This document shows, piece after piece, positions 24,072 to 56,870 of a stretch of DNA of 56,870 nucleotides. The first letter of the stretch is position 1, and every line of letters starts with the position of its first letter. The DNA comes from a virus (lineage: Duplodnaviria > Heunggongvirae > Uroviricota > Caudoviricetes): IMG/VR virus record IMGVR_UViG_2850796239_000009, one strand, 5' to 3'. The notes under the pieces are model-generated. The model was not told where the DNA came from, did no database searches, and saw nothing but the letters and a program-made list of their open reading frames with translations. The translations under genes and the position numbers were made by a program.

Positions 24072-24087
24072 TTTTTTGTAAAAGCCA

Positions 24088-24325: not shown

Positions 24326-24355
24326 AACTTTTTAAACGAGGGGGGGTGAAAATAA

Positions 24356-25089: not shown

Positions 25090-25300
25090 ATTCTGCAAAC
25101 AAAAAGATGCCGGAAAAAAATAGATTTTCCGGCATGCTACATAAATCCCGACCAAAGGAAGTAAATACATTAACACGAATTATCAGCACTGAAGTTGTTA
25201 CGGCATATTTTATACAACATTGCACTTGGTTGCATGTGTTCGCATAGCAGACATCGGTAATAGAATATATTCACAATTATTTGTAATGAATGTAAAGAGG

Positions 25301-26347
25301 ATGAGTATGGTTGATTTATATTCGCCTACACAGCTTGTGCAGGTGGCTAATGCTGAAGATGTGCAAAAAAATTAAATGCGTTGTTTACCAGTTTGTTTTT
25401 CACTCGCTCGGTAATGTTTGAATCGAGAGACATTATTCTTGATACGATCGACGATCCAAATATCCCGATCGCGGCGTTTTGCTCTCCTATGGTGGGCAGT
25501 AAAGTTTCACGAGATGAGGGATACGAATCAAAAACAATTCGTCCAGGTTATATGAAGCCGAAAAGCAGCATTGATCCAAATAAGTTAGCTGTGCAGCCCT
25601 GCTGGTGTGTCACCTGAGCAATACAATGCTTTTGGGGCGCGTAATATTAAAGTTAAACAGGCGATTGTAAATCAGGCTAAAGCTATTCGTGCACGTATTG
25701 AATGGCTTGCTGTTCAGGCAATCACAACGGGGAAAAATATCATTGAGGGCGATGGTATTGAACGTTATGAGCTGGACTGGAATATAAAACCACAAAATAT
25801 CATCACTCAGTCTGGCGGTACTGAGTGGTCAGGTAAGGATAAAGAAACTTTTGATCCAAATGATGATATTGAGAGCTACGCAGAATTTAGTGAGGGCGTC
25901 ACTAATATCATCATTATGGGTGGTAATGTATGGAAGAAATACCGTTCATTCAGAGCGATAAAAGAGGCTTTGGATACCCGTCGTGGTTCTAATTCCGAAC
26001 TGGAAACGGCCCTTAAAGACCTTGGTGATTCGGTGAGTTTTAAAGGGTATATGGGCGATGTTGCGATTGTTGTTTACAGCGGGCGTTATACCGACGAGGA
26101 CGGAACAGAAAAACATTTCCTTGATCCTGATTTGATGGTGCTTGGCAATACGGCTCTTCAGGGGATTGTCGCCTATGGCGGTATTCAGGATCCGGAGCTA
26201 ATCCGAATGGGGCTGACTAAAGCCGAACTTGCACCGAAAAACTATATTGTGCCTGGTGATCCGGCTATTGAATATGTGCAGACACATTCAGCACCACAGC
26301 CAATACCGGCCCGCATCAATCGTTTTGTTACCGTTCGCATTGGCTAA
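25301..26347 (+). pseudogene. Major capsid protein paralog (lambda gpE-like) encoded by the satellite; two homopolymer frame breaks
   Basis: MSMVDLYSPTQLVQVANAEDVQK (compare gpE MSMYTTAQLLAANEQKF), then ...ITQSGGTEWS...DTRRGSNSELETALKDLG...GDVAIVVYSG... alignable with the helper gpE at 31416-32441; breaks at the A7 run 25365-25371 and CCC at 25597-25599. Confidence 0.75.
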
Positions 26348-26356
26348 GGGGGAGCA

Positions 26357-26698
26357 ATGGCTACTCATTACACTGAACTCATGGCTGGCACTGAAGCACT
26401 GGTGACTACGCTGGGGATATTTTCAGCTAATAAAGGGGTAATTCCTGCATTTACGCCACTGATGCAGGAAGATGCAACAGGTGCACTGGTGGTATGGGAT
26501 GGTTCGAGCGTAGGTAAAGCGGTTTATGTTTCCGCTGTACAAATCGACACCGCGAAAAAAACACAGGCTCAGGTCTATAAGACAGGTGTCTTAAATGTTG
26601 ATGCTCTGAACTGGCCTGAGTCTGTTAAAGAACTGTCAGTAAAGGTTGCAGCGTTTGTTGGCTCAGGTATTTCTGTTCAGCCGCTGGCTCGTGTGTAA
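26357..26698 (+). CDS. Head decoration protein paralog (lambda gpD-like) encoded by the satellite
   Basis: 113-aa ORF with ...AFTPLMQEDATGALVVWDGSSVGKAVYVSAVQID... alignable with helper gpD (...[35 protein letters not shown]...). Confidence 0.7.
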   Translation: MATHYTELMAGTEALVTTLGIFSANKGVIPAFTPLMQEDATGALVVWDGSSVGKAVYVSAVQIDTAKKTQAQVYKTGVLNVDALNWPESVKELSVKVAAFVGSGISVQPLARV

Positions 26699-26709
26699 AG
26701 GGGGATACA

Positions 26710-27093
26710 ATGCAGAATGATTACAATGACCTTAAGCCAATTGCCGAAATGATGTACCCGAATCCAGCTGTAGAGGAATTAAAAGCTATCGCTGACAAAA
26801 TGTGTTTAAGCGAGCGCCTTGTTGATATGAATCAGGTGATGGAAATTACAACCCTGAGTCGTCGTACACTGCTAAACCTTGAGGCTAGTGGAGAGTTCCC
26901 GGAGCGTGTGCAGGTTACGGAAGGGCGTAAGGCCTGGTATTTAAGTGAAGTGATCGACTGGATAAATAATATTCCTCGCGCTTCTGAATATTGCCGCGTA
27001 CCTGTCCCAAAAAAGCCAGATGCGGCGCTATGCCTCAAGATTGAGCGTGTACGCCGCAATGCACGGGATGGTCGCTATAAGCTGATTGGTTGA
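26710..27093 (+). CDS. AlpA-like HTH DNA-binding protein
   Basis: 127-aa ORF with ...MEITTLSRRTLLNLEASGEFPERVQVTEGRKAWYLSEVIDWINN, a MerR/AlpA-like HTH pattern. Confidence 0.45.
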   Translation: MQNDYNDLKPIAEMMYPNPAVEELKAIADKMCLSERLVDMNQVMEITTLSRRTLLNLEASGEFPERVQVTEGRKAWYLSEVIDWINNIPRASEYCRVPVPKKPDAALCLKIERVRRNARDGRYKLIG

Positions 27094-27149
27094 TGAAATT
27101 AGGGCCCGCTCTGGCTGGCGGGTCCTTTCCGGTGATCCGGTAGGCTACG

Positions 27150-27161
27150 GGGCGGCGACCT
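27150..27161 (+). other. Satellite cos site (cosN GGGCGGCGACCT, helper-like cosQ, divergent cosB)
   Basis: GGGTCCTTTCCGGTGATCCGGTAGGCTACGGGGCGGCGACCTCGCGGGTTTTCGCTATTTATGA matches the helper cos at 12131-12195 almost base for base, then diverges. Confidence 0.75.
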
Positions 27162-27282
27162 CGCGGGTTTTCGCTATTTATGAGCCTTTTTCGGGTGCTG
27201 GTGGTGGTTTTGTTGTTCGCTCTATCTCTATGAATAAAAAGGAAAAGATAAAGCCAATACACCAACCTGAAACATTACTTAA

Positions 27283-27837
27283 GTGGGGATATTGATGAAA
27301 TCGCACCTGATGAACAAAAAAAACATGGCGCAAAGCTGCCGTGTAAGTGCGACAGCGTTCGACAAGTGGGGAGTGACTCCCGTTGAACGTAAAGGCCGCG
27401 AGGCGTTTTATGATGTTGCCAGCGTAATAGACAATCGGGTTAGCAATGCAATTAACCAGATTACAGACGACAAAGGCGAGATTGATGATGATGAACTCCT
27501 ACGAGTCAGGATCAGATTGCTGACAGCACAGGCAGAGGCGCAGGAGCTTAAAAACGAGCGCGAACGCGGCGACGTTATTGATACAGCGTTTTGTATATAC
27601 GTGCTTTCAAAATTGGCGAGTCAGATTTCTTCAATCATGGACAGCCTGCCGCTTGCCATGACAAGGAAGTTTCCCGACATGAAGCCGTCTATGCTGGATG
27701 GACTGAAAAAAGAAGTTATCAGAGCCTGTAACGCATGCGCAAAACTTGACGAAAACATACCGCTGATGCTGTCCGATTATCTGATGGAAACTGCCGGAAA
27801 CGTACCGGATAAGTTGCAGCCGAATAAAGATAAGTAA
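27283..27837 (+). CDS. Satellite terminase small subunit (Nu1-like; divergent N-terminal domain)
   Basis: C-terminal part ...LTAQAEAQELKNERERGDVIDTAFCIYVLSKLASQISSIMDSLPL... parallels Nu1 ...[46 protein letters not shown]...; true start may be Met-10 (27310). Confidence 0.7.
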   Translation: MGILMKSHLMNKKNMAQSCRVSATAFDKWGVTPVERKGREAFYDVASVIDNRVSNAINQITDDKGEIDDDELLRVRIRLLTAQAEAQELKNERERGDVIDTAFCIYVLSKLASQISSIMDSLPLAMTRKFPDMKPSMLDGLKKEVIRACNACAKLDENIPLMLSDYLMETAGNVPDKLQPNKDK

Positions 27838-27848
27838 CGTAGTACGCT

Positions 27849-28130
27849 ATGACTGAATCCGAAATACTGCGATTAATCCGCCGTGCTTGTGGAATCAGCA
27901 AGCAGCATGACGAACAGGCCACGCAGCCGGACAGCGTGACCGCAGATAATTATGTGCGTGTAGTGGCTGAGGTGATGCGCCGTGACGGTATTGAGCTTAA
28001 CGGCGTGGATATGCGCAACATACGAACAAGAGTCCTTGAGTTGCTGGCATATCGTCGCCGTTCTCAACAACGGAGGGAGAGCGCGAAAAATACTTACCAG
28101 TGGAAGAAGCCGGAACGATTGCGGCGGTAA
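27849..28130 (+). CDS. Hypothetical protein
   Basis: 93-aa basic ORF after terS. Confidence 0.3.
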   Translation: MTESEILRLIRRACGISKQHDEQATQPDSVTADNYVRVVAEVMRRDGIELNGVDMRNIRTRVLELLAYRRRSQQRRESAKNTYQWKKPERLRR

Positions 28131-28560
28131 CTTGCTGATATTCCCGATAACGCAAAATTGCGCTGGCTGACTTGTTGCATTGCAAAAAGTTAAGCAGGAA
28201 GGCACGGCCTGTAAGATGGGATGCAGTAAGTAGTTCAAGGCTACCTTGTGCTGGCACGCACAGTTAAGCCGTCGGTGCTGGATATCCCCCACTGGGGAAA
28301 AGCTGGCTACATCCCTCACATCTGAGGACTGATAACGCGACATTGCGCTGGCTGGCAAAGTGCAAAATTGCACGATGGCCTAACCCATTGATTATTTCGA
28401 AAACCTGCAATGCAGGAAATCGGGGAAGTAAGCCTAAGCTATTGATTGTTTCGAAAACCCCCATTGGGGGATGTCGGGAAAGTAAGACTAACCCATTGAT
28501 TCTTCCACAATCCTCAATTTGAGGAGGCCGGAACGTCTACATAGCTGCATCGCCGTAATG
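28130..28560 (+). repeat. Array of direct repeats each containing a different perfect palindrome (covarying stems)
   Basis: Three tandem ~54-bp units (28383-28545) share ATTGATTnTTyC...TCGGGrAAGTAAG and hold CCTGCA-A-TGCAGG, CCCCCA-T-TGGGGG, CCTCAA-T-TTGAGG; related pair GATAACGCnAnATTGCGCTGGCTG at 28146 and 28331 with CGCAA-AA-TTGCG, TTGCA-T-TGCAA, GTGCAA-AA-TTGCAC. Confidence 0.6.
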
Positions 28561-28843
28561 ATGATTCAGCCCACCAGCCAAATCAGCACAGCAACGACAG
28601 AATAGCCCGACACAGAAAAACCACGAATATGGGGTTTTTGTTATGACATGGTCATGATGACCACTCATACAAAACAGGTAAAGCCCACCAGCCTGATTAA
28701 AGGTTAACCGGAAAAAAGCCAGGTATCCAATCTCGATATGGGGATCCCTATATCGACATTAACGCCCACTAAAACTGTGCATATATGCATAGAAAAAGCA
28801 TCCACCAGCTTTATGACGGATGCCGCTCATCTTATAAATAATC

Positions 28844-28866
28844 GTGTATTGCAGTGTGTATTGCGA
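28844..28866 (+). repeat. Two GTGTATTGC repeats next to attR (arm-type-like)
   Basis: CGTGTATTGCAGTGTGTATTGCGA, related to the TGTGTATTGCAA repeats at attL. Confidence 0.4.
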
Positions 28867-28946
28867 CTCCTTTAAACGATAGGTCTGAGCATTCGTAATG
28901 TACTGTTTTTAAATTTTATTTTTTCCTGTCTTTTCATAAAGGCGAT

Positions 28947-29718
28947 GTATGCCGCCACCATTGAGAGTGAGCTGGATACGCAGTCAGCGATGGATTTTAT
29001 TCTGGGCGCGAACAGTAAGGAGCAGCGGGACAAGCTGACCGGCTGGATTGGTGAAATTGCCGCGTATTACGCCGCAGCACCGGTCCGTCTGGGAGGCGCA
29101 AAAGTGCCGCACCTGATGCCGGGGGACTCACTGAACCTGCAGACGGCTCAGGACACGGATAACGGCTACTCCGTGTTTGAGCAGTCACTGTTGCGGTATA
29201 TCGCTGCCGGGCTGGGTGTCTCGTATGAGCAGCTTTCCCGGAATTACGCCCAGATGAGCTACTCCACGGCACGGGCCAGTGCGAACGAGTCGTGGGCGTA
29301 CTTTATGGGGCGGCGAAAATTCGTCGCATCCCGTCAGGCGAGCCAGATGTTTCTGTGCTGGCTGGAAGAGGCCATCGTTCGCCGCGTGGTGACGTTACCT
29401 TCAAAAGCGCGTTTCAGCTTTCAGGAAGCCCGCAGCGCCTGGGGGAACTGTGACTGGATAGGCTCCGGTCGTATGGCCATCGATGGTCTGAAAGAAGTAC
29501 AGGAAGCGGTGATGCTGATAGAAGCCGGACTGAGTACCTACGAGAAAGAGTGCGCAAAACGCGGTGACGACTATCAAGAAATTTTTGCCCAGCAGGTCCG
29601 TGAAACGATGGAGCGCCGTGCAGCCGGTCTTAAACCGCCCGCCTGGGCGGCTGCGGCATTTGAATCCGGACTGCGACAATCAACAGAGGAGGAGAAGAGT
29701 GACAGCAGAGCTGCGTAA
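28947..29718 (+). pseudogene. B: Portal protein gpB, C-terminal fragment
   Basis: MYAATIESELDTQSAMDFILGANSKEQRDKLTGW...LRQSTEEEKSDSRAA matches recalled gpB residues ~284-533; resumes exactly where 16327-17133 stops. Confidence 0.85.
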
Positions 29719-32441: not shown

Positions 32442-32523
32442 TCATGGCCCTTCGGGGCCATTTTCTCTCTGTGGAGGAGTCCATGACGAAAGTAAGCGCT
32501 CCGAGAAGTACGTAGCGTAAGGA

Positions 32524-34124
32524 TTATTTTACAGACGAGAAGTTCCAGGGCAGCAGTTCATGCACTTGGTTCGACGGCCAGTCATTGAGCTTCTCGATCA
32601 CTTCGCGCAACCAGTCCTCCGGCTCCACTTCGTTCTGTTTGCAGGTGACCAGCAGACTGTAGATGATCGCCGCACTTTCTCCTCCCTTGTCTGAGCCGAA
32701 AAAGAGATAATTTTTTCTTCCAACCGCCACCGATCGTAACGCGTTTTCACCGATGTTGTTGTCTATTTCCACCCAGCCGTCACGACAGAACTCGTTCAGC
32801 GCATTCCAGTGATTCAGGATATAGTCGAACGCCTTCGCCATCTCCGCATGTTTCGACAGCGTTTTCCTCTGCAACTGTATCCAGTCGTACAACGACTGCA
32901 TCAACTGGACGCTTCTGGCTTTTCTGACTGCAAGCCGTTCCTCTGCCGGACTGCCACGTATCTCCGCTTCTATGTCGTATAACTCTGCTATCCGTCTGAG
33001 CGCTTCCTGAGTCATTTCTGTCGGACGGCGCACATCCTCGTCATGGATTTTTCGGCGGGCGTGGGCCAGGCACCCGGCTTCCTTCACCCGGCCCGTTTCG
33101 TACAGTACGTTATAACCTGCATAGGCATCAGCCTGCAGTACGCCCTGATACTTTGCCAGGTGGAGCTGCGGATGTTCTCCTTTGCGATCTGCCGAATACG
33201 CGAACCAGACGGCTGCCGGCAGGGATGAACCCGCATTACGATCATCCCTGACGTATACCCACAGACGACCCGTTTTCGTCTTTCCGTTCCCCGGGGCCAG
33301 TACTTTCACCGGAGTGTCATCTGCGTGCACCTTTCCTGCCTCCAGAACATAGTCATTCAGCGCTATATACAGAGGACGGAGTTTGTCTGCCATTTCTGAT
33401 ACCCAGCGCACCATGGTATTACGGCTCAGCTCCACGCCCTGTCGCGCGTATATTTCTGACTGGCGATATAAAGGGATATGTTCCATATATTTGCTGACCA
33501 GGATCCGTGCAAGTAACCCTGCACTGGCATAACCGCGTTCGATCGGTTTAGGGGAAGTGGTGCCTGAACGATGACATCACACCGGCTACAGGCCAGTTTG
33601 GGACGTATGGTTTCGATAACTTTAAAGGCGGTATTAATGATATCCAGTTGCTCTGAGATTGTTTCCCCCATTTCTTTCAGAACACCTCCACAGGCCGGGC
33701 AACTGGTTTCAGCAGGCAGAAGGCGATGTGTCTCCCGGGGAAGTTCTGCCGGCAGCGGTTTTCGTGAAGATTTTCGTCCCGGGGATTCAGGCTTACTGGC
33801 GATCGGGTTTTCTGACGGGGGACTGGTGTCAGGTGAATCTGTGACTGACGATGCATCTTCCAGAAGATTTCTGGCTGTGTTCAGCCGGTTTTCCAGTTCC
33901 GACAGTCGTTTTTCTGCCTGTCGGATCTGATTTTCAAGCTTATGACGCTTTTTCTCTGAACTCTGGCCGAACAACATACGACGCAACCTGTCGAGTTGCG
34001 CTTTCAGCCGTTCAATTTCCTGCTCATAGCCCGCGACCTGACAGGCATACTGTCGAAGCCGACTCTGTTGCTTACGCAACATGGCTTTAAGCAGCTCAAT
34101 ATCATCGGGGAGTTCATTGTTCAT
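32524..34124 (-). pseudogene. IS66-family transposase TnpC, frame broken near 33520
   Basis: N-terminal zinc-finger part (CPACGG...CSRCDV) at 33426-34124 and C-terminal DDE part ([17 protein letters not shown]...) at 32524-33486 lie in different frames. Confidence 0.75.
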
Positions 34125-34143
34125 TCCCTTGTTTTATCACGGG

Positions 34144-34491
34144 TTATATCCGGATGCCAGGCCGTTCTGTCCGTTTGGGATGTTGCCACGCGATCCCCTC
34201 CAGTAGCATGGATAACTGAGCTGGCGTCAGGTGCACTTTCCCTTCCCGGGTCACCGGCCAGACGAAGCGGCCCCGTTCCAGGCGTTTGGCGAACAGGCAT
34301 AACCCGTCACGATCGGCCCACAGTATTTTCACCATTTTGCCACTGCGGCCCCGGAAGACGAAGATATGCCCGGAGAACGGGTCATCTTTCAGCGTGTTCT
34401 GCACCTTCGAAGCCAGGCCATTGAAGCCACAACGCATATCTGTGATGCCAGCGATGATCCAGATTTTGGTACCGGTCGGCAGCGTTATCAT
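34144..34491 (-). CDS. IS66-family TnpB
   Basis: 115-aa ORF MITLPTGTKIWIIAGITDMRCGFNGLASKVQ..., the IS66 Orf2 pattern. Confidence 0.8.
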   Translation of the reverse strand: MITLPTGTKIWIIAGITDMRCGFNGLASKVQNTLKDDPFSGHIFVFRGRSGKMVKILWADRDGLCLFAKRLERGRFVWPVTREGKVHLTPAQLSMLLEGIAWQHPKRTERPGIRI

Positions 34492-34619
34492 CGGATACCC
34501 CCTTTCATTTCGCGGATTAGCGCCCGTAACAGTTCCGGAGTGAGAGGGTCAAACAGTTTTACCACACCTGATTTAAGATGCAGCTCGCACCGTGGGACGT
34601 TTCCGGGAGCCCCCTCAGG

Positions 34620-35920
34620 CTGAGGAATCCCCAGAAAACGAGACAGACATAGCATTATGTGATCTACTGATTTGTGCCAACAATTCAATGAGATCACTGC
34701 TATGCCTGTTCATAAAGTATGTCAGAATTTCTTCCGGGATGCCTTAGCACCATTTCATCAGTACCGACAAAATGCCCTGATGGATGCCACAGTGGCGTTA
34801 ATCAACGGAGCATCTCTGACGCTGACCAGTATCGGACGTTTTTTGCCGGGTAATGCACAAGTTAAGAATAAGATCAAACGTATTGATCGCCTCATGGGTA
34901 ATGAGGCGCTCCATCGCGATATTCCAATGATTTTCAGGAATATCACTTCAATGCTGACACGGCAGTTATCTTTATGTGTAATAGCCGTAGACTGGAGTGG
35001 CTATCCCTCCCAGGAGCATCATGTTCTTCGTGCCAGCCTTCTGTGTGACGGGCGTTCCATTCCGTTATTGAGTAAGGTTGTTCCTTCTGAAAAACAAAAT
35101 AATCCATTGATACAACATGATTTCCTTGATTCCCTTGCTCAATCCCTGCCCCCCGATGCCAGGGTTATTATTGTCACGGATGCTGGATTTCAGAGCGCAT
35201 GGTTTCACCATATTACTTCTCTGGGCTGGGATTTTATTGGTCGGATCAGAAATAACGTTCAGTATTGCCTCGATAACGCGCCTGAAAGATGGTTAAAAGT
35301 GTCGGATAGCCCTGAATGTAAAACACCGGAATATATGGGGGCTGGAAGGCTGGTTAAAGAAAGGAAAAAAAGCATCCGGGGGCATTTTTACACCTATAAG
35401 AAATCGGCAAAAGGGCGAAAAAAGAAACGTTCGAAAGGTCAGAGTGGTTTAAACAAAACAGACAAAGAACAGAGCAAATCAGCAAAAGAAGCCTGGTTGA
35501 TCTTCAGCAGTACAAATGACTTCAGAGCGCGAGAAATCATCAAGTTATACAGTCGGCGAATGCAGATTGAGCAAAACTTTCGTGATGAAAAGAACGGGCG
35601 CTTCGGATTTGGTCTTCGGGCCAGCAAAAGTCGTTCAACAGGAAGAATTCTGGTTCTGAGTCTGCTGGCAACGTTGAGCACTATCGTAATGTGGTTACTC
35701 GGTTATCACGCTGAAAATAAAGGGTTACACCTGAAATATCAGGCTAACAGCATTAAATCCCGGCGGGTTATCTCATATCTGACGTTAGCGAAGAATGTTC
35801 TTCGACACTCGCCACTTATTTTAAGACGAACAGTACTGAGCACAGTTCTAAACCATCTGTCCAGAACCTACCGAAATATGGTGCTGGTTTATTAGCAGTA
35901 ATTTTGTGGGGATCCCTCAG
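34620..35920 (+). mobile_element. IS10-like (IS4-family) insertion sequence, copy 2, 1301 bp, nested in the IS66-family element
   Basis: Ends CTGAGGAATCCCCA...TGGGGATCCCTCAG; 9-bp target duplication CCCCTCAGG at 34611-34619 and 35921-35929. Confidence 0.85.
34672..35895 (+). CDS. IS10-like (IS4-family) transposase, intact copy
   Basis: 407-aa ORF with DDE-type architecture similar to the IS10 transposase. Confidence 0.8.
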   Translation: MCQQFNEITAMPVHKVCQNFFRDALAPFHQYRQNALMDATVALINGASLTLTSIGRFLPGNAQVKNKIKRIDRLMGNEALHRDIPMIFRNITSMLTRQLSLCVIAVDWSGYPSQEHHVLRASLLCDGRSIPLLSKVVPSEKQNNPLIQHDFLDSLAQSLPPDARVIIVTDAGFQSAWFHHITSLGWDFIGRIRNNVQYCLDNAPERWLKVSDSPECKTPEYMGAGRLVKERKKSIRGHFYTYKKSAKGRKKKRSKGQSGLNKTDKEQSKSAKEAWLIFSSTNDFRAREIIKLYSRRMQIEQNFRDEKNGRFGFGLRASKSRSTGRILVLSLLATLSTIVMWLLGYHAENKGLHLKYQANSIKSRRVISYLTLAKNVLRHSPLILRRTVLSTVLNHLSRTYRNMVLVY

Positions 35921-36541
35921 CCCCTCAGGGCGCTCATCATGCTTGTTACGCCAGAAGGGATTTGTAACTGGTCTGGTCGGCTCCGGCGTATCAGTCAGTG
36001 CCACCGGGACAGGCATGCATTCCTGTATGTCATCATCGCTCAGTAAGCCGTCCTCGTACTGGCTTTTCCATTTAAACAGCAGGTTATCATTGATATCGTG
36101 TTCTCTGGCGATCCGGGCAACAACAGCCCCAGGCTGTAACGCCTGCTTAGCCAGACGGACCTTAAATTCACGGCTATAGCTGGTTCGCCGTTCTTTTCGC
36201 CATGAGCCTTCTCTGATTTGAGGCTCTGTTAATTCCTTCTTTCTGTTGGCATAAAGGATGGCGTCAAGTTGAGCGAATGAAACTGAATCGGGCAATGGCC
36301 ATGCGATACCGGATGCAAGAAATCGCTGAAAAAGCGTATGTATTGTGGAATGACTGAGACCCAGACGCTGAGCGATGGCCCGGATGGTCAGTTTATCTTC
36401 AAATCTTAAACGCAGGGCATCAGGCAAATAAGAACGGAAGCAGGGAATATCTTTTGTTGTCTGGGAATTCATCGTTCGTGTCCATCAATATAGATGGGCG
36501 CGATTGTTGCCAGACAGGACAATTTTCACAAGACGTCGCTG

Positions 36542-36949
36542 ATGGGGCGCTTACTGACGAAAGATGAACTGATTGCCCGTCTTCAGGTGCTGGGTGAGCA
36601 ACTGAACCGTGATGTCAGCCTGACGGGGACGAAAGAAGAACTGGCGCTCCGTGTGGCAGAGCTGGAAGAGGAGCTTGATGACACGGATGACGCAGCCGGT
36701 CAGGACACGTCTGTCAGCCCGGAAAATGCGCTGACCGGACATGAAAATGAGGTGGTATCAGAACAGACGGATACCGTGACTGATACGGCTGCTCTGGTCA
36801 CGGTCGTGGCACTGGTGACGCTGCATACCGATGCACTTCACGCCACGCGGGATGAACCTGTGGCATTTGTGCTGCCGGGAACGGCGTTTCGTGTCTCTGC
36901 CGGTGTGGCAGCCGAAATGACAGAACGTGGTCTGGCCAGAATGCAATAA
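36542..36949 (+). CDS. FI: DNA-packaging protein FI, native start displaced by IS66-family insertion
   Basis: Native ATG-ACG-AAA lies at 32483-32491 left of the IS; after the IS the frame continues TKDELIARLQVLGEQLNRDV...; an in-frame ATG inside the IS end (36542) would give MGRLL-TKDEL... Confidence 0.6.
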   Translation: MGRLLTKDELIARLQVLGEQLNRDVSLTGTKEELALRVAELEEELDDTDDAAGQDTSVSPENALTGHENEVVSEQTDTVTDTAALVTVVALVTLHTDALHATRDEPVAFVLPGTAFRVSAGVAAEMTERGLARMQ

Positions 36950-39898: not shown

Positions 39899-42466
39899 AC
39901 CGGTAGGCGATCTGGTCGTTGATTTGAGTCTGGATGCGGCCAGATTTGACGAGCAGATGGCCAGAGTCAGGCGTCATTTTTCCGGTACGGAAAGTGATGC
40001 GAAAAAAACAGCGGCAGTCGTTGAACAGTCGCTGAGCCGACAGGCGCTGGCTGCACAGAAAGCGGGGATTTCCGTCGGGCAGTATAAAGCCGCCATGCGT
40101 ATGCTGCCTGCGCAGTTCACCGACGTGGCCACGCAGCTTGCAGGCGGGCAAAGTCCGTGGCTGATCCTGCTGCAACAGGGTGGTCAGGTTAAGGACTCCT
40201 TCGGCGGGATGATCCCCATGTTCAGGGGGCTTGCCGGTGCGATCACCCTGCCGATGGTCGGGGCCACCTCGCTGGCGGTGGCGATCGGTGCGCTGGCGTA
40301 TGCCTGGTATCAGGGGGACTCAACCCTGTCCAGTTTCAATAAAACGCTGGTCCTTTCCGGTAATCAGGCAGGACTGACGGCAGATCGTATGCTGGTCCTG
40401 TCCAGAGCCGGGCAGGCGGCAGGGCTGACGTTTAACCAGACCAGCGAGTCACTGACGGCGCTGGTGAATGCAGGTGTGCGTGGTGGTGAGCAGTTTGAGG
40501 CGATCAGCCAGAGTGTGGCGCGTTTCTCCTCTGCATCCGGCGTGGAGGTGGACAAGGTCGCTGAAGCCTTCGGGAAGCTGACCACAGACCCGACGTCGGG
40601 ACTGACAGCGATGGCACGTCAGTTCCATAACGTGACGGCGGAGCAGATTGCGTATGTTGCTCAGTTGCAGCGTTCCGGAGATGAAGCCGGGGCATTGCAG
40701 GCGGCGAACGAGGCCGCAACGAAAGGGTTTGATGACCTGACCCGCCGCCTGAAAGAGAACATGGGCACGCTGGAGACCTGGGCAGACAGGACAGCGCGGG
40801 CATTCAAATCCATGTGGGATTCGGTGCTGGATATTGGTCGCCCGGACACTGCCCGGGAAATGCTGGAGAAAGCAGAAAAGGCTTTTGATGAGGCGGACAA
40901 AAAATGGCAGTGGTATCAGAGCCGGAGCCACCGGCGCGGTAAAACATCCGCATTTCTTGCCAATCTCCGGGGAGCATGGGAGGACAGAGCGAATGCGCAA
41001 CTTGGGCTTTCAGCCGCCACGTTGCAGGCCGATCTTGAAAAGGCCAGAGAGATGGCAGCAAAGGACTGGGCCGAGTCTGAGGCATCACGGCTGAAATATA
41101 CCGAAGAGGCGCAGAAGGCTTATGAACGCCTGCAGACGCCGCTGGAGAAATATACCGCCCGTCAGGAAGAACTGAACAAGGCACTGAAGGACGGGAAAAT
41201 TCTGCAGGCAGATTACAACACGCTGATGGCGGCGGCGAAAAAGGATTATGAAGCGACGCTGAAAAAGCCGAAACAGTCCGACGTGAAGGTGTCTGCGGGC
41301 GATCGTCAGGAAGACAGTGCTCATGCTGCCCTGCTGACGCTTCAGGCTGAACTCCGGACGCTGGAGAAGCATGCCGGAGCAAATGAGAAAATCAGCCAGC
41401 AGCGCCGGGATTTGTGGAAGGCGGAGAGTCAGTTCGCGGTACTGGAGGAGGCGGCGCAACGTCGCCAGCTGTCTGCACAGGAGAAATCCCTGCTGGCGCA
41501 TAAAGATGAGACGCTGGAGTACAAACGCCAGCTGGCTGCACTTGGCGACAAGGTTACGTATCAGGAGCACCTGAACGCGCTGGCGCAGCAGGCGGATAAA
41601 TTCGCACAGCAGCAACGGGCAAAACGGGCCGCTATTGATGCGAAAAGCCGGGGCTGACTGACCGGCAGGCAGAACGGGAAGCCACGGAACAGCGCCTGAA
41701 GGAACAGTATGGCGATAATCCTCTGGCGCTGAATAACGTCATGTCAGAGCAGAAAAAGACCTGGGCGGCTGAAGACCTGCTTCGCGGGAGCTGGATGGCA
41801 GGCCTCAGGTCCGGCTGGAGCGAGTGGAAAGAGAGTGCCACGGACAGTATGTCGCAGGTTAAAAGTGCTGCCACGCAGACCTTTGATGGTATTGCGCAGA
41901 ATATGGCGGCGATGCTGACCGGCAGTGAACAGAACTGGCGCAGCTTCACCCGCTCCGTGCTGTCCATGATGACAGAAATTCTGCTTAAGCAGGCAATGGT
42001 GGGGATTGTCGGGAGTATCGGCAGCGCCATTGGCGGGGCTGTTGGTGGCGGCTCATCCGCGTCAGGCGGTACAGCCATTCAGGCAGCTGCGGCGAAATTC
42101 CATTTTGCGACCGGAGGATTTACGGGAACCGGCGGCAAATATGAGCCAGCGGGGATTGTTCATCGTGGTGAATTTGTCTTCACGAAGGAGGCAACCAGCC
42201 GGATTGGTGTCGGCAACCTGTACCGCCTGATGCGGGGCTATGCGGAAGGTGGTTATGTGGGCGGTGCCGGAAGTCCGGCGCAGATGCGGCGGGCTGAAGG
42301 CATTAATTTTAATCAGAACAACAACGTGGTGATTCAGAACGACGGTACGAATGGTCTGCCAGGTCCACAGATGATGAAGGCAGTGTATGACATGGCCCGC
42401 AAGGGTGCCCGTGATGAAATTCAGGCACAGATGCGCGATGGTGGTCTGTTCTCCGGAGGTGGATGA
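39891..42466 (+). pseudogene. H: Tail tape measure protein H, frame broken at a G4 run
   Basis: MAEPVGDLVVDLSLDAARFDEQMARV... runs to a stop at 41657 (...AIDAKSRG*); remainder LTDRQAEREATEQ...MRDGGLFSGGG continues in the +2 frame to 42466; break at CCGGGGCTGA 41648-41657. Confidence 0.8.
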
Positions 42467-44869: not shown

Positions 44870-48267
<3,398 letters not shown>

Positions 48268-48333: not shown

Positions 48334-48933
48334 ATGCGTAAACTTTATGCCGCCATTTTGTCCGCAGCCATTTGTCTGGCCGTATCCGGTGCGCCTGCAT
48401 GGGCGTCTGAACATCAGTCCACGCTGAGCGCGGGGTATCTTCATGCCCGGACGAACGTTCCCGGCAGTGATGATCTGAACGGGATTAACGTGAAATACCG
48501 TTATGAGTTTACGGACACACTGGGGATGGTGACGTCTTTCAGCTATGCAGGAGACAAGAATCGCCAGCTGACCCATTACAGCGATACCCGCTGGCATGAA
48601 GATTCCGTTCGTAACCGCTGGTTCAGCGTAATGGCGGGGCCGTCTGTGCGCGTGAATGAATGGTTCAGCGCGTATGCGATGGCGGGTGTGGCTTACAGCC
48701 GTGTGTCGACTTTCTCCGGGGATTATCTTCGCGTAACTGACAGCAAGGGGAAAACGCACGATGTGCTGACCGGAAGTGATGACGGTCGCCACAGCAACAC
48801 GTCTCTGGCGTGGGGAGCTGGCGTGCAGTTTAACCCGACCGAATCCGTGGCCATTGATATTGCTTATGAAGGCTCCGGCAGTGGCGACTGGCGCACTGAC
48901 GGTTTCATCGTGGGTGTCGGTTATAAGTTCTGA
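48334..48933 (+). CDS. lom: Lom outer-membrane protein (Ail/OmpX/PagC family)
   Basis: 199-aa ORF with signal peptide MRKLYAAILSAAICLAVSGAPAWA and beta-barrel pattern ending ...GFIVGVGYKF. Confidence 0.9.
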   Translation: MRKLYAAILSAAICLAVSGAPAWASEHQSTLSAGYLHARTNVPGSDDLNGINVKYRYEFTDTLGMVTSFSYAGDKNRQLTHYSDTRWHEDSVRNRWFSVMAGPSVRVNEWFSAYAMAGVAYSRVSTFSGDYLRVTDSKGKTHDVLTGSDDGRHSNTSLAWGAGVQFNPTESVAIDIAYEGSGSGDWRTDGFIVGVGYKF

Positions 48934-48997: not shown

Positions 48998-51900
48998 ATG
49001 GCAGTAAAGATTTCAGGTGTACTGAAAGACGGCACAGGAAAACCGGTACAGAACTGCACAATCCAGCTGAAAGCAAAACGTAACAGCACCACGGTGGTGG
49101 TGAACACGGTGGCCTCAGAAAATCCGGATGAAGCCGGGCGTTACAGCATGGACGTTGAGTACGGTCAGTACAGCGTTATTCTGTTGGTGGAAGGCTTCCC
49201 GCCATCGCATGCCGGGACCATCACCGTGTATGAAGACTCACAACCGGGTACGCTGAATGATTTTCTTGGTGCCATGACGGAGGATGATGCCCGTCCGGAG
49301 GCACTGCGCCGCTTTGAACTGATGGTGGAAGAGGTGGCGCATAACGCGTCCGCAGTGGCACAGAACACGGCAGCCGCAAAGAAGTCAGCCAGCGATGCCG
49401 GCACATCTGCCCGTGAGGCGGCAACCCATGCAACCGATGCTGCAGGCTCAGCACGTGCCGCCAGCACGTCAGCCGGACAGGCTGCATCATCTGCTCAGTC
49501 AGCATCTTCCAGCGCAGGAACGGCATCAACAAAGGCCACTGAAGCATTAAAAAGTGCTGCCGCTGCAGAGTCCTCAAAAAGCGCGGCAGCCACCAGTGCC
49601 GGTGCGGCGAAAACGTCAGAAACGAATGCCGCAGCATCACAACTATCAGCAGCCACTTCTGCATCCACCGCGACCACGAAAGCGTCAGAAGCTGTCACCT
49701 CAGCCAGGGATGCGTCGGCTTCAAAAGAAGCGGCAAAATCATCAGAAACGAACGCATCATCAAGCGCCAGTAGTGCAGCTTCCTCGGCAACGGCGGCAGG
49801 AAATTCCGCGAAGGCGGCAAAAACGTCCGAGACGAACGCTAGGCTGTGTCCCTTAATCATCTGAGCTATAGTAACTGTCTGTTTACACAACATATTGAAC
49901 TATGGCTCGCTACGACCTTCCCGATGAGGCATGGACCATCATCAAGCCCCTGTTACCTCCTGAACCCGCCACACCACGGGCCGGACGCCCATGGGCTGAG
50001 CACCGTAAAATCATCAATGGCATGTTCTGGGTGTTATGTTCCGGTGCACCATGGCGCGATTTACCCGAACGATATGGGTCATGGAAAACTGTTTATAACC
50101 GCTTTAACCGATGGTCAAAGTCAGGCGTGATTAATATTATTTTCAACAGGTTGCTTTCGCTACTTGATGCAAACGGCTTTATTGACTGGTCTGCCACCGC
50201 GCTGGATGGCAGTAATATCCGGGCGCTGAAATGTGCCGCCGGTGCTCAAAAAAACATCCCGATATCGACGGAGATAATGGGCTGGGTCGCTCTCGCGGCG
50301 GTTTTGGCACCAAAATCCATCTGGCAACAGACGGAAGTGGCCTCCCGTTAAATATCGTGCTAAGCCCCGGACAAGCTCATGAAAGCCAGTTCGCGCAACG
50401 ACTTCTGGACGGGATTGGCGTTCAGCGTCAGAACGGCAGCATGAAACGCCGTGGACATGCGGTACTGGCTGATAAAGCGTATTCAGGGCGCGCATTGCGC
50501 AACGAGCTGAAAAATAACGGTATAAAGGCAGTAATCCCCCGAAAGTCAAATGAGAAAATGGCATCGGATGGACGTGCACAGCTTGATCGTGATGCGTACC
50601 GCAATCGTAATGTCGTTGAACGGTGCTTTGGGCGGCTGAAAGAATATCGCCGCATCGCCACGCGTTACGACAAAACGGCGAGAAATTACCTGGCGATGGT
50701 GAAACTGGGCTGCATCCGACTCTTTTATCAACGCTTACGTAATTAAGGGACACAGCCTAGGTCTTCTGAGACGGCAGCGGGACAGAGCGCCTCAGCTGCG
50801 GCAGGCTCAAAAACAGCGGCTGCGTCGTCTGCCAGTGCCGCGTCAACAAGTGCCGGGCAGGCCTCAGCCAGTGCCACCGCAGCCGGAAAATCGGCAGAAA
50901 GCGCCGCATCATCCGCTTCAACAGCCACAACGAAGGCTGGCGAAGCCACTGAACAGGCCAGCGCAGCAGCGAGGTCTGCTTCCGCAGCGAAGACATCCGA
51001 AACGAACGCGAAAGCGTCGGAAACCCGTGCAGAATCCTCAAAAACGGCTGCCGCATCGTCCGCCAGTTCGGCGGCGTCATCGGCATCATCGGCGTCTGCT
51101 TCAAAAGATGAGGCGACCAGACAGGCGTCAGCAGCGAAGGGCAGCGCCACGACGGCATCCACAAAGGCGACAGAGGCAGCTGGCAGTGCGACGGCGGCAG
51201 CACAGAGCAAAAGTACGGCAGAAACCGCGGCAACGCGCGCCGAGACAGCGGCAAAACGGGCAGAGGATATTGCATCCGCCGTGGCGCTTGAGGATGCGAG
51301 CACGACGAAAAAGGGGATAGTCCAGCTCAGTAGTGCAACCAACAGCACATCTGAAACGCTTGCCGCGACACCGAAGGCAGTTAAAGCAGCGAATGACAAT
51401 GCGAATGGCAGGGTACCATCTAACCGAAAAGTTAACGGGAAAGCACTGACTGCGGATATAACATTAACACCGAAAGATATTGGCACTTTAAATTCAGTAA
51501 CGATCTCTTTCTCTGGCGGGGCAGGGTGGTTCAAACTGGCAACGGTTACCATGCCACAAGCGAGTTCCATCGTTTACATCGCATTGATTGGTGGCGCTGG
51601 TTACAACGTCGGCTCCCCACAGCCGTCGGATTAACGAATTTCGCCTGGATCAACACATCCGGCGATACATATGATATTTACGTTGAGATTGGCAATTATG
51701 CGACGAGTGTAAATATCCATTGGGATTGTACTACAAATGCGTCAGTTTCTATTTATACCTCGCCAACATATTCAGCGAGTAAGCCTTCCAGCGTTACCGA
51801 TGGTGTTGTTTATACGATGTATAGCTCACATCAGAAACCTACACCATCAGATATTGGAGCGCTGCCAACGACTGGAGGGACTATTTCAGGTCCGTTGTCT

Positions 51901-52989
51901 GTTACTGATGGGATCACCGGGGCACTGAAGGGGAACGCCGATACCGCGACGAAACTTGCGGCAGCCCCAAAAATTAACGGTGTTAAGTTTGATGGCTCGG
52001 CGGATATTAACCTCACGCCGGAAAATATTGGTGCATTTGCCCGACGTTCGACGGGGGCTTATGCGGATTCGGATGGAGCCGTTCCCTGGAATGCCGAATC
52101 AGGCGCTTACAATGTCACCCGCTCTGGCGACAGCTATATTCTGGTTAACTTCTATACCGGAGTCGGAAGTTGCCGGACCCTGCAGATGAAGGCGCATTAC
52201 AGAAATCGTGGTCTGTTCTACCGTTCTTCAAGAGACGGTTATGGTTTTGAGGAAGACTGGGCAGAAGTTTATACCTCGAAAAATCTTCCACCAGAAAGCT
52301 ACCCAGTCGGCGCACCAATCCCGTGGCCATCAGATACCGTTCCGTCTGGTTATGCCCTGATGCAGGGGCAGACTTTTGACAAATCTGCATACCCGAAACT
52401 TGCAGCGGCTTATCCGTCAGGCGTGATCCCTGATATGCGTGGCTGGACGATTAAGGGCAAACCTGCCAGTGGTCGGGCCGTATTGTCTCAGGAACAGGAC
52501 GGCATTAAATCGCATACCCACAGCGCCAGCGCATCCAGTACGGATTTGGGGACGAAAACCACATCGTCGTTTGATTACGGCACTAAATCCACGAATAACA
52601 CTGGTGCGCATACCCATAGTTTAAGTGGCAGCACGAATGCAGCTGGTAATCACAGCCATAGAGATGGCCGTCGATTTAACCCCAGTGTTTTTAAAGATAC
52701 TTATCAATATGGTTATACAAGCTCAGGTCAAAATACCTGGGGTGTACAAGGCTCAGTAGGTATGTCTACGGGGTGGTTAGCTAATACCAGTACAGATGGT
52801 AATCATAGCCACTCACTGTCCGGCACAGCAGCATCTGCAGGTGCACACGCGCATACTGTCGGTATTGGTGCTCATACGCACTCCGTTGCGATTGGTTCAC
52901 ATGGACACACCATCACCGTTAACGCTGCTGGTAACGCGGAAAACACCGTCAAAAACATCGCATTTAACTATATTGTGAGGCTTGCATAA
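48998..52989 (+). pseudogene. stf: Side tail fibre protein Stf, interrupted by IS5-family copy 3 and by an internal frame break
   Basis: MAVKISGVLKDGTGKPVQNCTIQLKA... with Ala/Ser-rich repeats up to 49841; resumes in frame after the 918-bp IS plus duplication; repeat frame stops at 51634 (...GSPQPSD*) while the His-rich C-terminal domain continues in another frame from ~51600 to 52989. Confidence 0.8.
49842..50757 (+). mobile_element. IS5-family insertion sequence (IS427-group-like), copy 3, 916 bp, inside stf
   Basis: Same ends as copy 2; flanked by CTA|...|TAG; orfA 49902-50351, orfB 50231-50746. Confidence 0.85.
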
Positions 52990-53564
52990 TGGCATTCAGA
53001 ATGAGTGAACAACCACGGACCATAAAAATTTATAATCTGCTGGCCGGAACTAATGAATTTATTGGTGAAGGTGATGCATATATTCCGCCTCATACAGGTC
53101 TGCCAGCAAACAGTACCGATATTGCACCGCCAGATATTCCGGCTGGCTTCGTGGCTGTTTTCAACAGTGATGAGTCATCGTGGCATCTCGTTGAAGATCA
53201 TCGGGGTAAAACAGTTTATGACGTGGCGTCAGGGGACGCGTTATTTATTTCTGAACTCGGTCCGTTACCGGAAAATGTTACCTGGTTATCGCCGGAAGGG
53301 GAGTTTCAGAAGTGGAACGGCACAGCCTGGGTGAAGGATACGGAAGCAGAAAAACTGTTCCGGATCCGGGAGGCGGAAGAAACAAAAAACAACCTGATGC
53401 AGGTAGCCAGTGAGCATATTGCGCCGCTTCAGGATGCTGCAGATCTGGAAATTGCAACGGAGGAAGAAATCTCGTTGCTGGAAGCATGGAAAAAGTATCG
53501 GGTATTGCTGAACCGTGTTGATACGTCAACTGCACAGGATATTGAATGGCCAGCACTGCCGTAG
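52989..53564 (+). CDS. tfa: Tail fibre assembly protein Tfa
   Basis: 191-aa [61 protein letters not shown]..., directly after stf. Confidence 0.85.
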
Positions 53565-53661
53565 GGTAAAACATATAAATTCTATAATTAGATGTATCTT
53601 TCCATTTACGGCAAGGAAGGGGGCTTGGAAGACGTAAAGCATCTCACACCGAGATTATTTT

Positions 53662-54252
53662 TTATATGTCAGGTGTCTGAAGTTTTGCTTTGGCTCTTAA
53701 AATGGTTTGCCGCGAGGTTTTGAATTCCCGGGCAATGGCACTTATACTTACACCTGACTTAATTCGTTCGAATACCACCTGTTTCTGTTCTTCATTTAAC
53801 ACAGGTGGTCGACCAAAACGTTTCCCTGCGCCGCGGGCTCTTACTATCCCGGAATGAGTGCGTTCAAGTAAAAGGTCTCGTTCAAATTCAGCGACTGCTG
53901 AAATTACTTGCATCATCATTTTTCCTGTTGGACTGGTCAGGTCAATGCCCCCCAATGCTAAGCAATGCACTCTGATACCTGTTTCGGTCAGTTGTTCCAC
54001 TGTTTTCCTGATATCCATTGCATTACAACCAAGGCGATCCAGTTTTGTCACAATCAATTGATCACCACATTTCAGGCGAGCAAGCAACCGGTTAAAACCA
54101 GGACGCTCACTGGTTGCTGCTGAGCCGCTAATGTGTTCTTCGATTATTTGCTGAGGTTTGATTTTAAAACCTGCACTTTCGATTTCCCGGCGTTGATTTT
54201 CGGTGGTCTGATCCAGCGTTGATATCCGACAGTAAGCAAAAATTCGAGACAT
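53662..54252 (-). CDS. pinQ: Serine recombinase / DNA invertase (Pin/Hin/Gin family)
   Basis: 196-aa [32 protein letters not shown]... with catalytic Ser in CRISTLDQ and C-terminal HTH. Confidence 0.9.
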
Positions 54253-54568
54253 AGTGAGACTCTATACGAAATTGGTGTTCATATCATAATGCATCTCAGA
54301 CAATAATTATGATTATTTTTGTGCATATTTGTATGTACACGTTCGAAAATAAACGAATGCGTATGCAACCCCGTAATTTTGGTGAGACCCAAAATCGATT
54401 TTGTGAAAAATGGCTTTAACTCGGTTTGTTTTTCGAGTTCCGGGCGGACTCAAGGAAGAAGAATAGTGTTGCGTGTTATTTTAACCAGATTTCAAGTTGT
54501 TTGGTCGTGGAAAAGTGGAGCAAAATGTTGTTAAAGTGGAAAAATGATAAAAAAGTAAGTTTATTATA

Positions 54569-54802
54569 TTACATTTTACCATTTAAATTTTGGTTGTCTT
54601 TAAGAACTGATATCGCTGTTTGTAATAAATCTTTGTTATCCAGCCATGATTTTTTCTTTATGTTTCCTTCAATGTAATCAAGCAATGTTCTGGTATTGAT
54701 AGGTCTTCCCTGTTTTGCTACTTCCACTATAGCATCCCCTAGGATAATTCTTACTTCAGGAAGCTGCGCAGGGAACCACTTTAGGGTGTCTTTTGATTTC
54801 AT
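54569..54802 (-). CDS. ydfK: YdfK/YnaE-like small prophage protein
   Basis: MKSKDTLKWFPAQLPEVRIILGDAIVEVAKQGRPINTRTLLDYIEG...; ORF-track frame extends upstream to 54835. Confidence 0.65.
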   Translation of the reverse strand: MKSKDTLKWFPAQLPEVRIILGDAIVEVAKQGRPINTRTLLDYIEGNIKKKSWLDNKDLLQTAISVLKDNQNLNGKM

Positions 54803-55586
54803 GAAGATATTCCTTAAAATATTATTGATTTTCATTGCGATATTGTATGTCTGATTCAGGATATGTTGACTTATACATCGGTTTTGTCTGGGTTATTGGA
54901 TATGCCAATCCCTAATTTTATTAGGGCATGACTAAAAATGCTGAATATGATAAGGAGAGATGTGATTATCAGTATGCTGTTCATATAGCCTCGAATTAGT
55001 AATGTGTTATATATGATATAGTTGACAATTTTTATCTTGGGTGTTCTTAAAGTTCGTAGATAAACATTGTCGTTTCAGGTATACAGGAATGCTAACAGGT
55101 GGCAGCAAAAATCAGGCGGTTTATGGCGCAAGCTGAAGCGGCAACTGCAAACTATCTTATGCAGAGACTCTACACGGATTGGGTTTAAAAGTATACATAG
55201 ATAACAGTTTTTATCTGAAAAAGAAAAATATCAAGGTGATATAGCCTATATTCCTTTGATGCGGAGGAATGAATGTGATGGGAGTGATGTATCTGAATAG
55301 TTGAAAAACCGCAGACACGCCTTATGCAGGAACGTGCTGCGGCTGGCTGATGCACTTTCGAGAGTGCATGTATTGAATTATTTCCAGCTATTATCGATTT
55401 TACGCATAAATCCATGAAAAAACTACTTATCTGTTGGGGAGTTTTTTTGGGGCATATATGGGACAGAAATAGGCCCCAGATAGACACTGAGATCGAACTT
55501 AGGATGCTTTTTAAAAAATGCAACTATCTGAAAAAACCTAGAAAACGCCAAGGAAACCACAGGATGGGAAAAAATACCTGTGAATT

Positions 55587-56870
55587 ATGGATTTCCAGTT
55601 ATATTCGCTCGGCGCAGCGTTAGTGTTTCATGAAATATTTTTTCCTGAATCATCAACGGCAATGGCGTTAATTCTGGCAATGGGAACCTATGGTGCAGGT
55701 TATGTGGCGCGTATTGTCGGAGCATTTATTTTCGGCAAAATGGGCGACAGAATAGGGCGTAAAAAAGTGCTCTTTATTACCATCACCATGATGGGGATCT
55801 GTACCACCTTAATTGGAGTGTTACCGACCTATGCACAGATTGGTGTTTTTGCACCCATCTTGCTGGTGACGCTGCGTATTATTCAGGGGTTGGGTGCAGG
55901 TGCGGAAATTTCCGGTGCCGGTACGATGCTGGCGGAATATGCGCCAAAAGGTAAGCGCGGAATTATCTCCTCATTTGTAGCTATGGGAACTAACTGCGGA
56001 ACCTTGAGCGCAACGGCAATCTGGGCCTTTATGTTCTTCATTCTCAGTAAAGAGGAACTGCTGGCGTGGGGATGGAGTATACCGTTCCTGGCGAGCGTTG
56101 TCGTGATGGTCTTTGCTATCTGGTTGCGTATGAATCTGAAAGAAAGCCCGGTCTTTGAGAAGGTTAACGACAGCAACCAACCGACAGCAAAACCTGCACC
56201 TGCTGGTAGCATGTTCCAGAGCAAATCCTTCTGGCTGGCAACAGGGCTGCGTTTTGGTCAGGCGGGTAACTCCGGGTTAATTCAGACTTTCCTTGCAGGC
56301 TATTTAGTACAGACGTTATTGTTTAACAAAGCAATTCCAACAGATGCATTGATGATCAGTTCGATTCTCGGCTTTATGACCATTCCGTTCCTTGGTTGGT
56401 TATCCGATAAAATTGGTCGCCGGATCCCGTATATTATTATGAATACCTCTGCGATTGTGCTGGCATGGCCAATGCTTTCTATCATCGTAGATAAAAGCTA
56501 TGCCCCGAGCACCATTATGGTTGCACTGATTGTGATTCATAACTGTGCGGTGCTGGGATTATTTGCTCTGGAAAATATTACCATGGCAGAAATGTTCGGC
56601 TGTAAAAACCGCTTTACCCGGATGGCTATTTCTAAAGAAATTGGTGGTCTTATCGCTTCCGGTTTTGGTCCTATCCTTGCGGGTATTTTCTGCACCATGA
56701 CGGAATCCTGGTATCCGATCGCCATTATGATCATGGCATATTCAGTGATTGGTTTAATCTCTGCGCTGAAAATGCCAGAAGTGAAAGACCGTGATTTAAG
56801 TGCGCTGGAAGACGCTGCGGAAGAACAACCGCGTGTTGTAAGAGCTGCGCAACCTTCCAGAAGTCTGTAA
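55587..56870 (+). CDS. ydfJ: MFS transporter (metabolite:H+ symporter family), N-terminally truncated by the prophage junction
   Basis: 427-aa ORF with 10 or more predicted TM helices; begins inside the first conserved MFS motif region (DFQLYSLGAALVF...GDRIGRKK), so roughly 25-40 N-terminal residues are missing. Confidence 0.7.
   Translation: MDFQLYSLGAALVFHEIFFPESSTAMALILAMGTYGAGYVARIVGAFIFGKMGDRIGRKKVLFITITMMGICTTLIGVLPTYAQIGVFAPILLVTLRIIQGLGAGAEISGAGTMLAEYAPKGKRGIISSFVAMGTNCGTLSATAIWAFMFFILSKEELLAWGWSIPFLASVVVMVFAIWLRMNLKESPVFEKVNDSNQPTAKPAPAGSMFQSKSFWLATGLRFGQAGNSGLIQTFLAGYLVQTLLFNKAIPTDALMISSILGFMTIPFLGWLSDKIGRRIPYIIMNTSAIVLAWPMLSIIVDKSYAPSTIMVALIVIHNCAVLGLFALENITMAEMFGCKNRFTRMAISKEIGGLIASGFGPILAGIFCTMTESWYPIAIMIMAYSVIGLISALKMPEVKDRDLSALEDAAEEQPRVVRAAQPSRSL

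Follow-up and report, generated by a model that had tools for sequence, protein, structure and literature searches.

An ISSfl7 insertion and an 82 bp deletion split the side tail fibre gene of a defective Qin-type prophage, probably of Shigella boydii

The stretch of DNA analysed here (IMG/VR record IMGVR_UViG_2850796239_000009, 56,870 nucleotides; hereafter the window, to which all positions refer) carries a defective Qin-type lambdoid prophage that is located at ydfJ in what is very probably a Shigella boydii chromosome. Its side tail fibre gene (stf) is almost certainly a dead gene, which would have been inactivated by two independent and ordinary mutations: the insertion of the insertion sequence (IS) ISSfl7 and a deletion of 82 bp. 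The stf region (48998–52989) is split into three pieces by exactly two lesions, it contains no single uninterrupted full-length open reading frame (ORF) and it is a pseudogene of the lambda-type Stf family. Judged from the reading frames, each lesion alone would be enough to abolish a functional fibre. The three pieces are listed below.

48998..49841, + strand: stf 5′ fragment; codons 1–281 and the first base of codon 282, covering the N-terminal tail fibre domain and the start of the Ala/Ser-rich shaft
50760..51634, + strand: stf middle fragment; codons 282–569 in the original phase, followed by out-of-frame P S D and the TAA at 51632–51634
51619..52989, + strand: stf 3′ fragment; codons 596–1051 and the stop, in the other phase, covering the collar domain and a receptor-binding tip that resembles T4 gp37 and has HxH motifs (located by tblastn with residues 596–1051 as the query)

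In the course of events that we favour, ISSfl7 would have transposed into the only CTAG of stf and duplicated its central TA. Translation would now terminate seven codons into the IS and leave a stub of 288 residues in which nothing but the tail-attachment domain and a portion of the shaft remains. The 82 bp between two ACAGC repeats were probably lost by replication slippage or by microhomology-mediated illegitimate recombination, after which the shaft and the gp37-like receptor-binding tip would no longer be read in the same phase. Both lesions may have persisted because selection was relaxed on a prophage that presumably could already make no particles.

Comparison with an intact homologue

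The intact stf of Escherichia coli P27_L1_05.20, a single ORF of 3156 bp encoding 1051 amino acids (WP_163419442.1), was used as the reference. In a MAFFT alignment of this gene with the window gene from which the IS had been taken out, 75 substitutions and a single gap of 82 bp are present. Structurally, the window gene differs from intact Stf in exactly two respects, the IS with one copy of the TA and the 82 bp gap. Removal in silico of the IS and one TA together with restoration of the 82 bases yields an ORF of 1051 codons without an internal stop. The 75 nucleotide differences between this repaired gene and that of WP_163419442.1 translate into only 12 amino-acid differences (63 of the 75 are silent), and stf was therefore under purifying selection until shortly before its inactivation.

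The domain structure of the intact homologue indicates what the gene encoded. Residues 1–134 match the prophage tail fibre N-terminal attachment domain PF08400 (E = 5.5e-72), and residues 1–94 are matched by PDB entry 9e7m, 'Tail fiber protein'. Over residues 1–282 the window Stf is 96.5% identical to the Stf of E. coli 14EC047. A Collar domain (PF07484, E = 6.6e-12) is also found, and residues 821–1051 match the receptor-binding tip of T4 gp37 (PDB entry 2xgf, E = 1.6e-84), with the HxH repeats included.

Source of the window and recovery of both lesions in a second assembly

The window is an exact piece of GenBank entry CP026875.1, a 5.16 Mb chromosome, of which 12,867 bases were matched as an exact substring of the window. 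It very probably derives from the chromosome of Shigella boydii ATCC 35964, since the adjacent accession CP026876.1 is a plasmid of that strain. The 288-residue chimeric product of the stf 5′ fragment is present in two public records only, one of which is CP026875.1.

In principle, the breaks could be sequencing or assembly artefacts of a long-read assembly. Errors of this type may indeed be present elsewhere in the prophage. The genes for H (tape measure, ∼41651–41672) and J (46192–46216) are each frameshifted by the loss of one G in an identical context (CCGGGGGC to CCGGGGC), which resembles a long-read homopolymer error. A 450-residue J fragment protein is present in CP026875.1 only and is absent from GCA_000193915.2, an independent assembly that shares the stf lesions. 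The H and J frameshifts may thus be homopolymer errors and not real pseudogenes, and they are not counted as decay below. An insertion of 916 bp with a target duplication and a deletion of 82 bp are, however, unlike homopolymer slips, and both are found base for base in GCA_000193915.2. The left IS junction is located there on contig AERN01000025, while contig AERN01000066 contains the IS, the right junction and the deletion junction with 100% identity over 6,151 bp (window 49839–55989). The two lesions are therefore no assembly artefact; this explanation is effectively refuted and we give it practically no chance. GCA_000193915.2 may stem from a resequencing of the same strain; it would then exclude an assembly error and be silent on the spread of the lesions.

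The ISSfl7 insertion

The following features belong to the first lesion.

49840..49841: left copy of the duplicated TA; homologues in which the site is unoccupied have CA/TA only once
49842..50757, + strand: ISSfl7 (IS5 family), 916 bp; assigned from its near-identity to annotated copies and its terminal repeats
49902..50351, + strand: transposase orfA; DUF4096 N-terminal domain, E = 1.5e-30
50231..50746, + strand: transposase orfB; DDE_Tnp_1 catalytic domain, E = 1e-21, in the −1 frame relative to orfA
50249..50255, + strand: slippery heptamer A AAA AAC in the orfA/orfB overlap; predicted −1 programmed frameshift site for an orfA–orfB fusion
50758..50759: right copy of the duplicated TA, read from the sequence flanking the IS

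The lambda-type stf starts at the ATG at 48998 (MAVKISGVLKDG...). The frame that it opens enters foreign sequence and stops at 49864, so that the 5′ ORF as it stands encodes 288 residues ending in ...ETNARLCPLII. The foreign sequence is bounded by perfect terminal inverted repeats of 16 bp (GGCTGTGTCCCTTAAT) at 49842–49857 and 50742–50757, and the left and right junctions with stf read ACGAACGCTAGGCTGTGTCCC and GGGACACAGCCTAGGTCTTCTG, respectively. Its top full-length matches are 99.2–100% identical over all 916 bp, while lower-ranked matches are at ∼91%. Several of the top matches are annotated by RefSeq as IS5 family or as 'IS5-like element ISSfl7 family transposase'. Near-identical copies are mostly located on Shigella plasmids and are also found in E. 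coli resembling enteroinvasive strains. The IS together with the duplication adds 916 + 2 = 918 = 3 × 306 bases, and the phase of stf therefore resumes unchanged at 50760 (positions 48998 and 51281 are both 2 mod 3). A preliminary description of this region, prepared from the letters alone, had placed an IS5-family copy of 916 bp at 49842–50757, flanked by CTA and TAG, with a TA duplication and a frame that is kept across 918 bp. The inverted repeats agree with the first of these claims and direct reading of the flanks agrees with the others.

The transposase is predicted to be made through a −1 programmed frameshift at the heptamer in the overlap of orfA and orfB; RefSeq annotates the ISSfl7 transposase as a two-piece coding sequence with 'programmed frameshift'. 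Two other copies of ISSfl7 are present in the window, copy 1 at 10675–11589 on the minus strand and copy 2 at 20289–21204, and the stf copy is one base different from each. Copy 1 is 915 bp long with a 1 bp deletion at IS position 695, within orfB, and its transposase is probably defective. At IS position 442, copies 1 and 2 have a C and the stf copy has a T, which corresponds to a Leu/Pro difference in orfB.

Target preference and origin of the CTAG in stf

All three copies in the window have a duplicated TA, and their targets are CTAA, CTAG and CTAG. In the orientation of the window the flanks are CTA/TAA, CTA/TAG and CTA/TAG, exactly as the preliminary description had given them (CTA on every left side; TAG, TAG and TAA on the right), and the preference for CTAG-type targets that it had proposed to check is confirmed in the window and in 26 related elements. 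For this wider test, GTDB representative genomes were scanned for the 16 bp inverted repeat and the flanks were analysed. The repeat is preceded by TA in 144 of 150 distinct ends and by YTA in 136 of them. All 26 complete related elements have a TA duplication, and their reconstructed targets are CTAG (12), CTAA/TTAG (10), TTAA (3) and CTAC (1). The target preference of ISSfl7-like elements is thus confirmed as YTAR with CTAG favoured, CTAC being the single exception.

The restored stf contains exactly one CTAG, at nucleotide 842, and this is the insertion site. The choice of site is explained by this lone CTAG rather than by the Ala/Ser low complexity as such. No DNA tandem repeats were identified by Tandem Repeats Finder (TRF) in the intact stf, the Ala/Ser-rich shaft included, and the Ala/Ser 'repeat' is low complexity at the protein level only. 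The preliminary description, which had named the low-complexity Ala/Ser-coding repeat as the insertion target, is corrected on this point. CTAG is present 16 times in the whole window, compared with ∼220 times expected from base composition. As read from the junctions, each insertion of ISSfl7 into a CTAG regenerates CTAG on both sides, so that the ISSfl7 junctions themselves should account for several of the 16.

In intact E. coli homologues the insertion site reads CCAGG, which is a Dcm site. A 41-mer centred on the empty site matches 1,596 E. coli records in its C version and one record in its T version. The landing pad in stf was thus created by a C-to-T change that turned GCC into the synonymous GCT and affected the inner cytosine of the Dcm site. 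The change preceded the insertion of the IS, because both duplicated copies read TA, and it may have arisen via deamination of 5-methylcytosine. A bolder reading, in which deamination at Dcm sites that escapes very-short-patch repair provides CTAG-specific IS5-family elements with new CTAG landing pads, is unlikely in our view; if true, it would connect a known hotspot of mutation with the expansion of IS elements that is seen in Shigella. The empty site of copy 2 (20289–21204), the one other copy open to this comparison, is natively CTAGG, a state that is ancestral in 635 E. coli records, and a Dcm-site origin as a general rule for ISSfl7 targets was rejected for that reason.

Elements of 265 bp with the same 16 bp inverted repeat as ISSfl7 and with TA flanks make up 14 of the 26 paired elements, and Serratia aquatilis (NZ_CP173186.1) is among the genomes that have them. 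They look like a non-autonomous family of miniature inverted-repeat transposable elements derived from an ISSfl7-like IS. Full-length relatives of ISSfl7 are abundant in Symbiopectobacterium, Phytobacter, Xenorhabdus and Photorhabdus.

The 82 bp deletion

The second lesion is marked by a single short feature, assigned by alignment with the intact homologue.

51619..51623, + strand: deletion junction with the remaining ACAGC

The 82 bases that are missing from the window (ACAGCAGGCAGG...GGAAGCGT) are bracketed in the intact gene by 5 bp direct repeats, ACAGC, of which one copy is retained in the junction sequence GGCTCCCCACAGCCGTCGGATT. The deletion takes out codons 570–596 and one base, and with them the peptide QAGISELVLRAGNGNPKGITGALWKRT. 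The new ending is ...GSPQPSD, followed by the TAA at 51632–51634 that closes the Ala/Ser-rich frame. Because 82 mod 3 = 1, the downstream part of stf is out of phase. The C-terminal frame with the HxH motifs is open from 51526 to 52989 and overlaps the Ala/Ser-rich frame at 51526–51634. All of this agrees with what had been suspected beforehand, namely that the Ala/Ser-rich frame ends at 51634, that the HxH domain is in another frame and that the junction between them is a short internal deletion, which alignment with intact Stf now sizes at 82 bp.

The overlap of the two open frames is the sole point that speaks for a native two-frame arrangement at ∼51600, in which for example a programmed ribosomal frameshift would join shaft and tip. 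Intact homologues have, by contrast, 82 extra bases in one continuous frame. The top E. coli matches listed for a 120 bp junction probe come in two pieces that together extend over 202 bp, and they therefore contain the 82 bp. The additional 82 bp are present, within a single frame, in more than 500 E. coli records, and the deletion junction is in none. Among 5,426 complete E. coli genomes, none matches a 41-nucleotide probe that seeds only on the deleted form. No slippery heptamer is read at the deletion junction, and the loss of 82 nucleotides removes 27 conserved residues. A native arrangement, already judged unlikely in the preliminary description, is thus left with a negligible probability.

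An exact 31-mer of the deletion junction gave 0 matches in the GTDB species representatives, among which Shigella did not appear as a separate representative, so that this count is uninformative on Shigella. The combined two-lesion arrangement is in no complete E. coli genome, with a best coverage of 83% in three pieces. By these comparisons, the stf lesions are specific to this lineage.

The structure of the deletion is, we infer, the signature of replication slippage or microhomology-mediated deletion. Another conceivable agent is the PinQ-type serine recombinase encoded next to this region, which could have removed the 82 bp by site-specific deletion: an intact recombinase gene lies ∼2 kb downstream, and invertases of the Pin/Gin/Cin type are active on the tail fibre genes of other phages. 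These enzymes need an imperfect palindromic crossover site of ∼26 bp, however, and the end points of the deletion have nothing in common beyond the directly oriented 5 bp of ACAGC, to either side of which the similarity does not extend. Furthermore, in hundreds of E. coli genomes the intact sequence has remained stable alongside pinQ. We therefore consider a site-specific deletion extremely improbable and retain slippage or microhomology as the likely origin.

Prophage type and gene neighbourhood

The best-matching E. coli locus is that of strain 14EC047, with the order nohA–terminase–...–J–lom–stf–tfaQ–pinQ–ydfK–ydfJ. This gene order identifies the element as a lambdoid prophage of the Qin type, with ydfJ as its insertion site. 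The order J–lom–stf–tfa, which is expected for a lambda-type side tail fibre, was confirmed in the window. The neighbours of stf are as follows.

48334..48933, + strand: lom (Ail/Lom outer membrane protein), intact; upstream neighbour of stf
52989..53564, + strand: tfa (tail fibre assembly chaperone), 191 residues, apparently intact
53662..54252, − strand: pinQ/pinR-type serine recombinase gene, 196 residues, intact; it belongs to the Qin-type prophage end and adjoins tfa

Two further ORFs have been called in public annotations of the stf region. A 275-residue antisense ORF (50743–51570, − strand) across the stf shaft is called as a gene and has no Pfam match; it is most likely spurious, because GC-rich Ala/Ser codons stay open on the opposite strand as well. 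Public gene calls also predict a 390-residue ORF with a Collar domain in the 3′ part of stf.

This second ORF bears on a further explanation, in which the 3′ module, consisting of a gp37-like tip ORF read from an internal start (for example ATG 51817, 390 residues) and tfa, is kept as still useful, either because the fragment is expressed or because it serves incoming lambdoid phages as a reservoir for recombination. Besides being predicted by gene callers as an ORF with a Collar domain, the 3′ fragment, like tfa, is without further stops (99.1% and 97.9% protein identity, respectively, to E. coli 14EC047), and only two of the 12 substitutions relative to WP_163419442.1 fall in it. Recent lesions explain this intactness equally well, as 63 of the 75 substitutions are silent, and a tip that lacks the N-terminal attachment domain has no means of joining a tail, as is known structurally from Ur-lambda (PMC12617516). 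Retention of a useful module is thus very unlikely, and inactivation of the whole gene by the two lesions remains the preferred reading.

Wider decay of the prophage

Decay beyond stf was surveyed by tblastn of the late proteins of 14EC047 against the window, by DNA comparison and by reading of the junctions. The late operon of the window prophage is nearly whole, from the terminase to tfa. An island of 11.8 kb (17141–28932) splits the portal gene, with portal residues 8–279 encoded at 16325–17140 and residues 273–533 at 28933–29715. The island contains an integrase-domain protein (17534–18574), a P4-family primase (22318–23514), an Icd-like region and ISSfl7 copy 2, and the imperfect direct repeat AAGGCGAT(T/G)TATG lies on either side of it. 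In appearance, the island is an integrative element of P4-like or satellite type that sits within a gene of a helper-type prophage. An IS4-family element is located at the W–portal junction (∼15027–16317), and a block of IS66 and IS4 (32493–36554) is inserted in codon 3 of FI and flanked by the direct repeat GACGAAAG. The prophage is presumably unable to make particles, and stf would therefore have been free to decay.

In addition, plasmid CP026876.1 begins with 200 bases that match the window at 35680, and an IS4-type element is therefore common to the chromosome and the plasmid.

Comparison with known systems

A close precedent is laboratory lambda. The side fibres of Ur-lambda bind OmpC and speed up adsorption but are dispensable, and the laboratory phage lost them by a frameshift in stf (PMC12617516). 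As in the window, the side fibre gene of lambda PaPa is split into two frames, which abolishes the OmpC-binding fibres (PMC12617516, citing Hendrix and Duda 1992), and the two genes share their position after J and lom and before tfa as well as the gp37-like tip. Unlike in lambda PaPa, the frameshift in the window is an 82 bp microhomology deletion, it is accompanied by a second lesion, the IS, and it is found in a defective prophage and not in a viable phage. The similarity to T4 gp37 (PDB entry 2xgf) is confined to the distal tip with its HxH repeats, which is likewise followed by a chaperone gene; in its attachment domain at the N terminus and in its Ala/Ser shaft, the protein belongs to the lambda Stf type.

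The window prophage resembles Qin and Rac of E. coli K-12 (stfQ/stfR–tfaQ/tfaR–pinQ/pinR) in being a defective lambdoid prophage with damaged structural genes, and it shares with Qin the chromosomal locus and the gene order (ydfJ, ydfK, pinQ, tfaQ, stf). In contrast to Qin and Rac, it keeps a nearly whole late operon and is riddled with Shigella IS elements. ISSfl7 is also reported to disrupt fimD (codon 801) in S. boydii CIP52-54 (PMC4374849); the IS, the species and inactivation by insertion are the same in both cases and the target gene is another one. Shigella reference genomes have at least 199 pseudogenes, many of which were made by IS elements, and most Shigella IS insertions derive from IS1, IS2, IS4, IS600 and IS911 (PMC7373316). 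Compared with those five, ISSfl7 is a minor IS.

The inactivation of stf is accordingly a known kind of event, ordinary gene decay of the type that is typical of Shigella. What is added here is the size of the deletion (82 bp) and its ACAGC microhomology, the name of the IS, a quantified YTAR/TA rule for its targets and the lone CTAG, which stems from a C-to-T change at a Dcm site and is a small curiosity in itself. For annotation, the three stf pieces should be treated as one pseudogene, and the 275-residue antisense and 390-residue 'Collar' ORFs should not be treated as genes. The locus matters little beyond its correct annotation. It is a clean and fully resolved example of prophage decay in Shigella.

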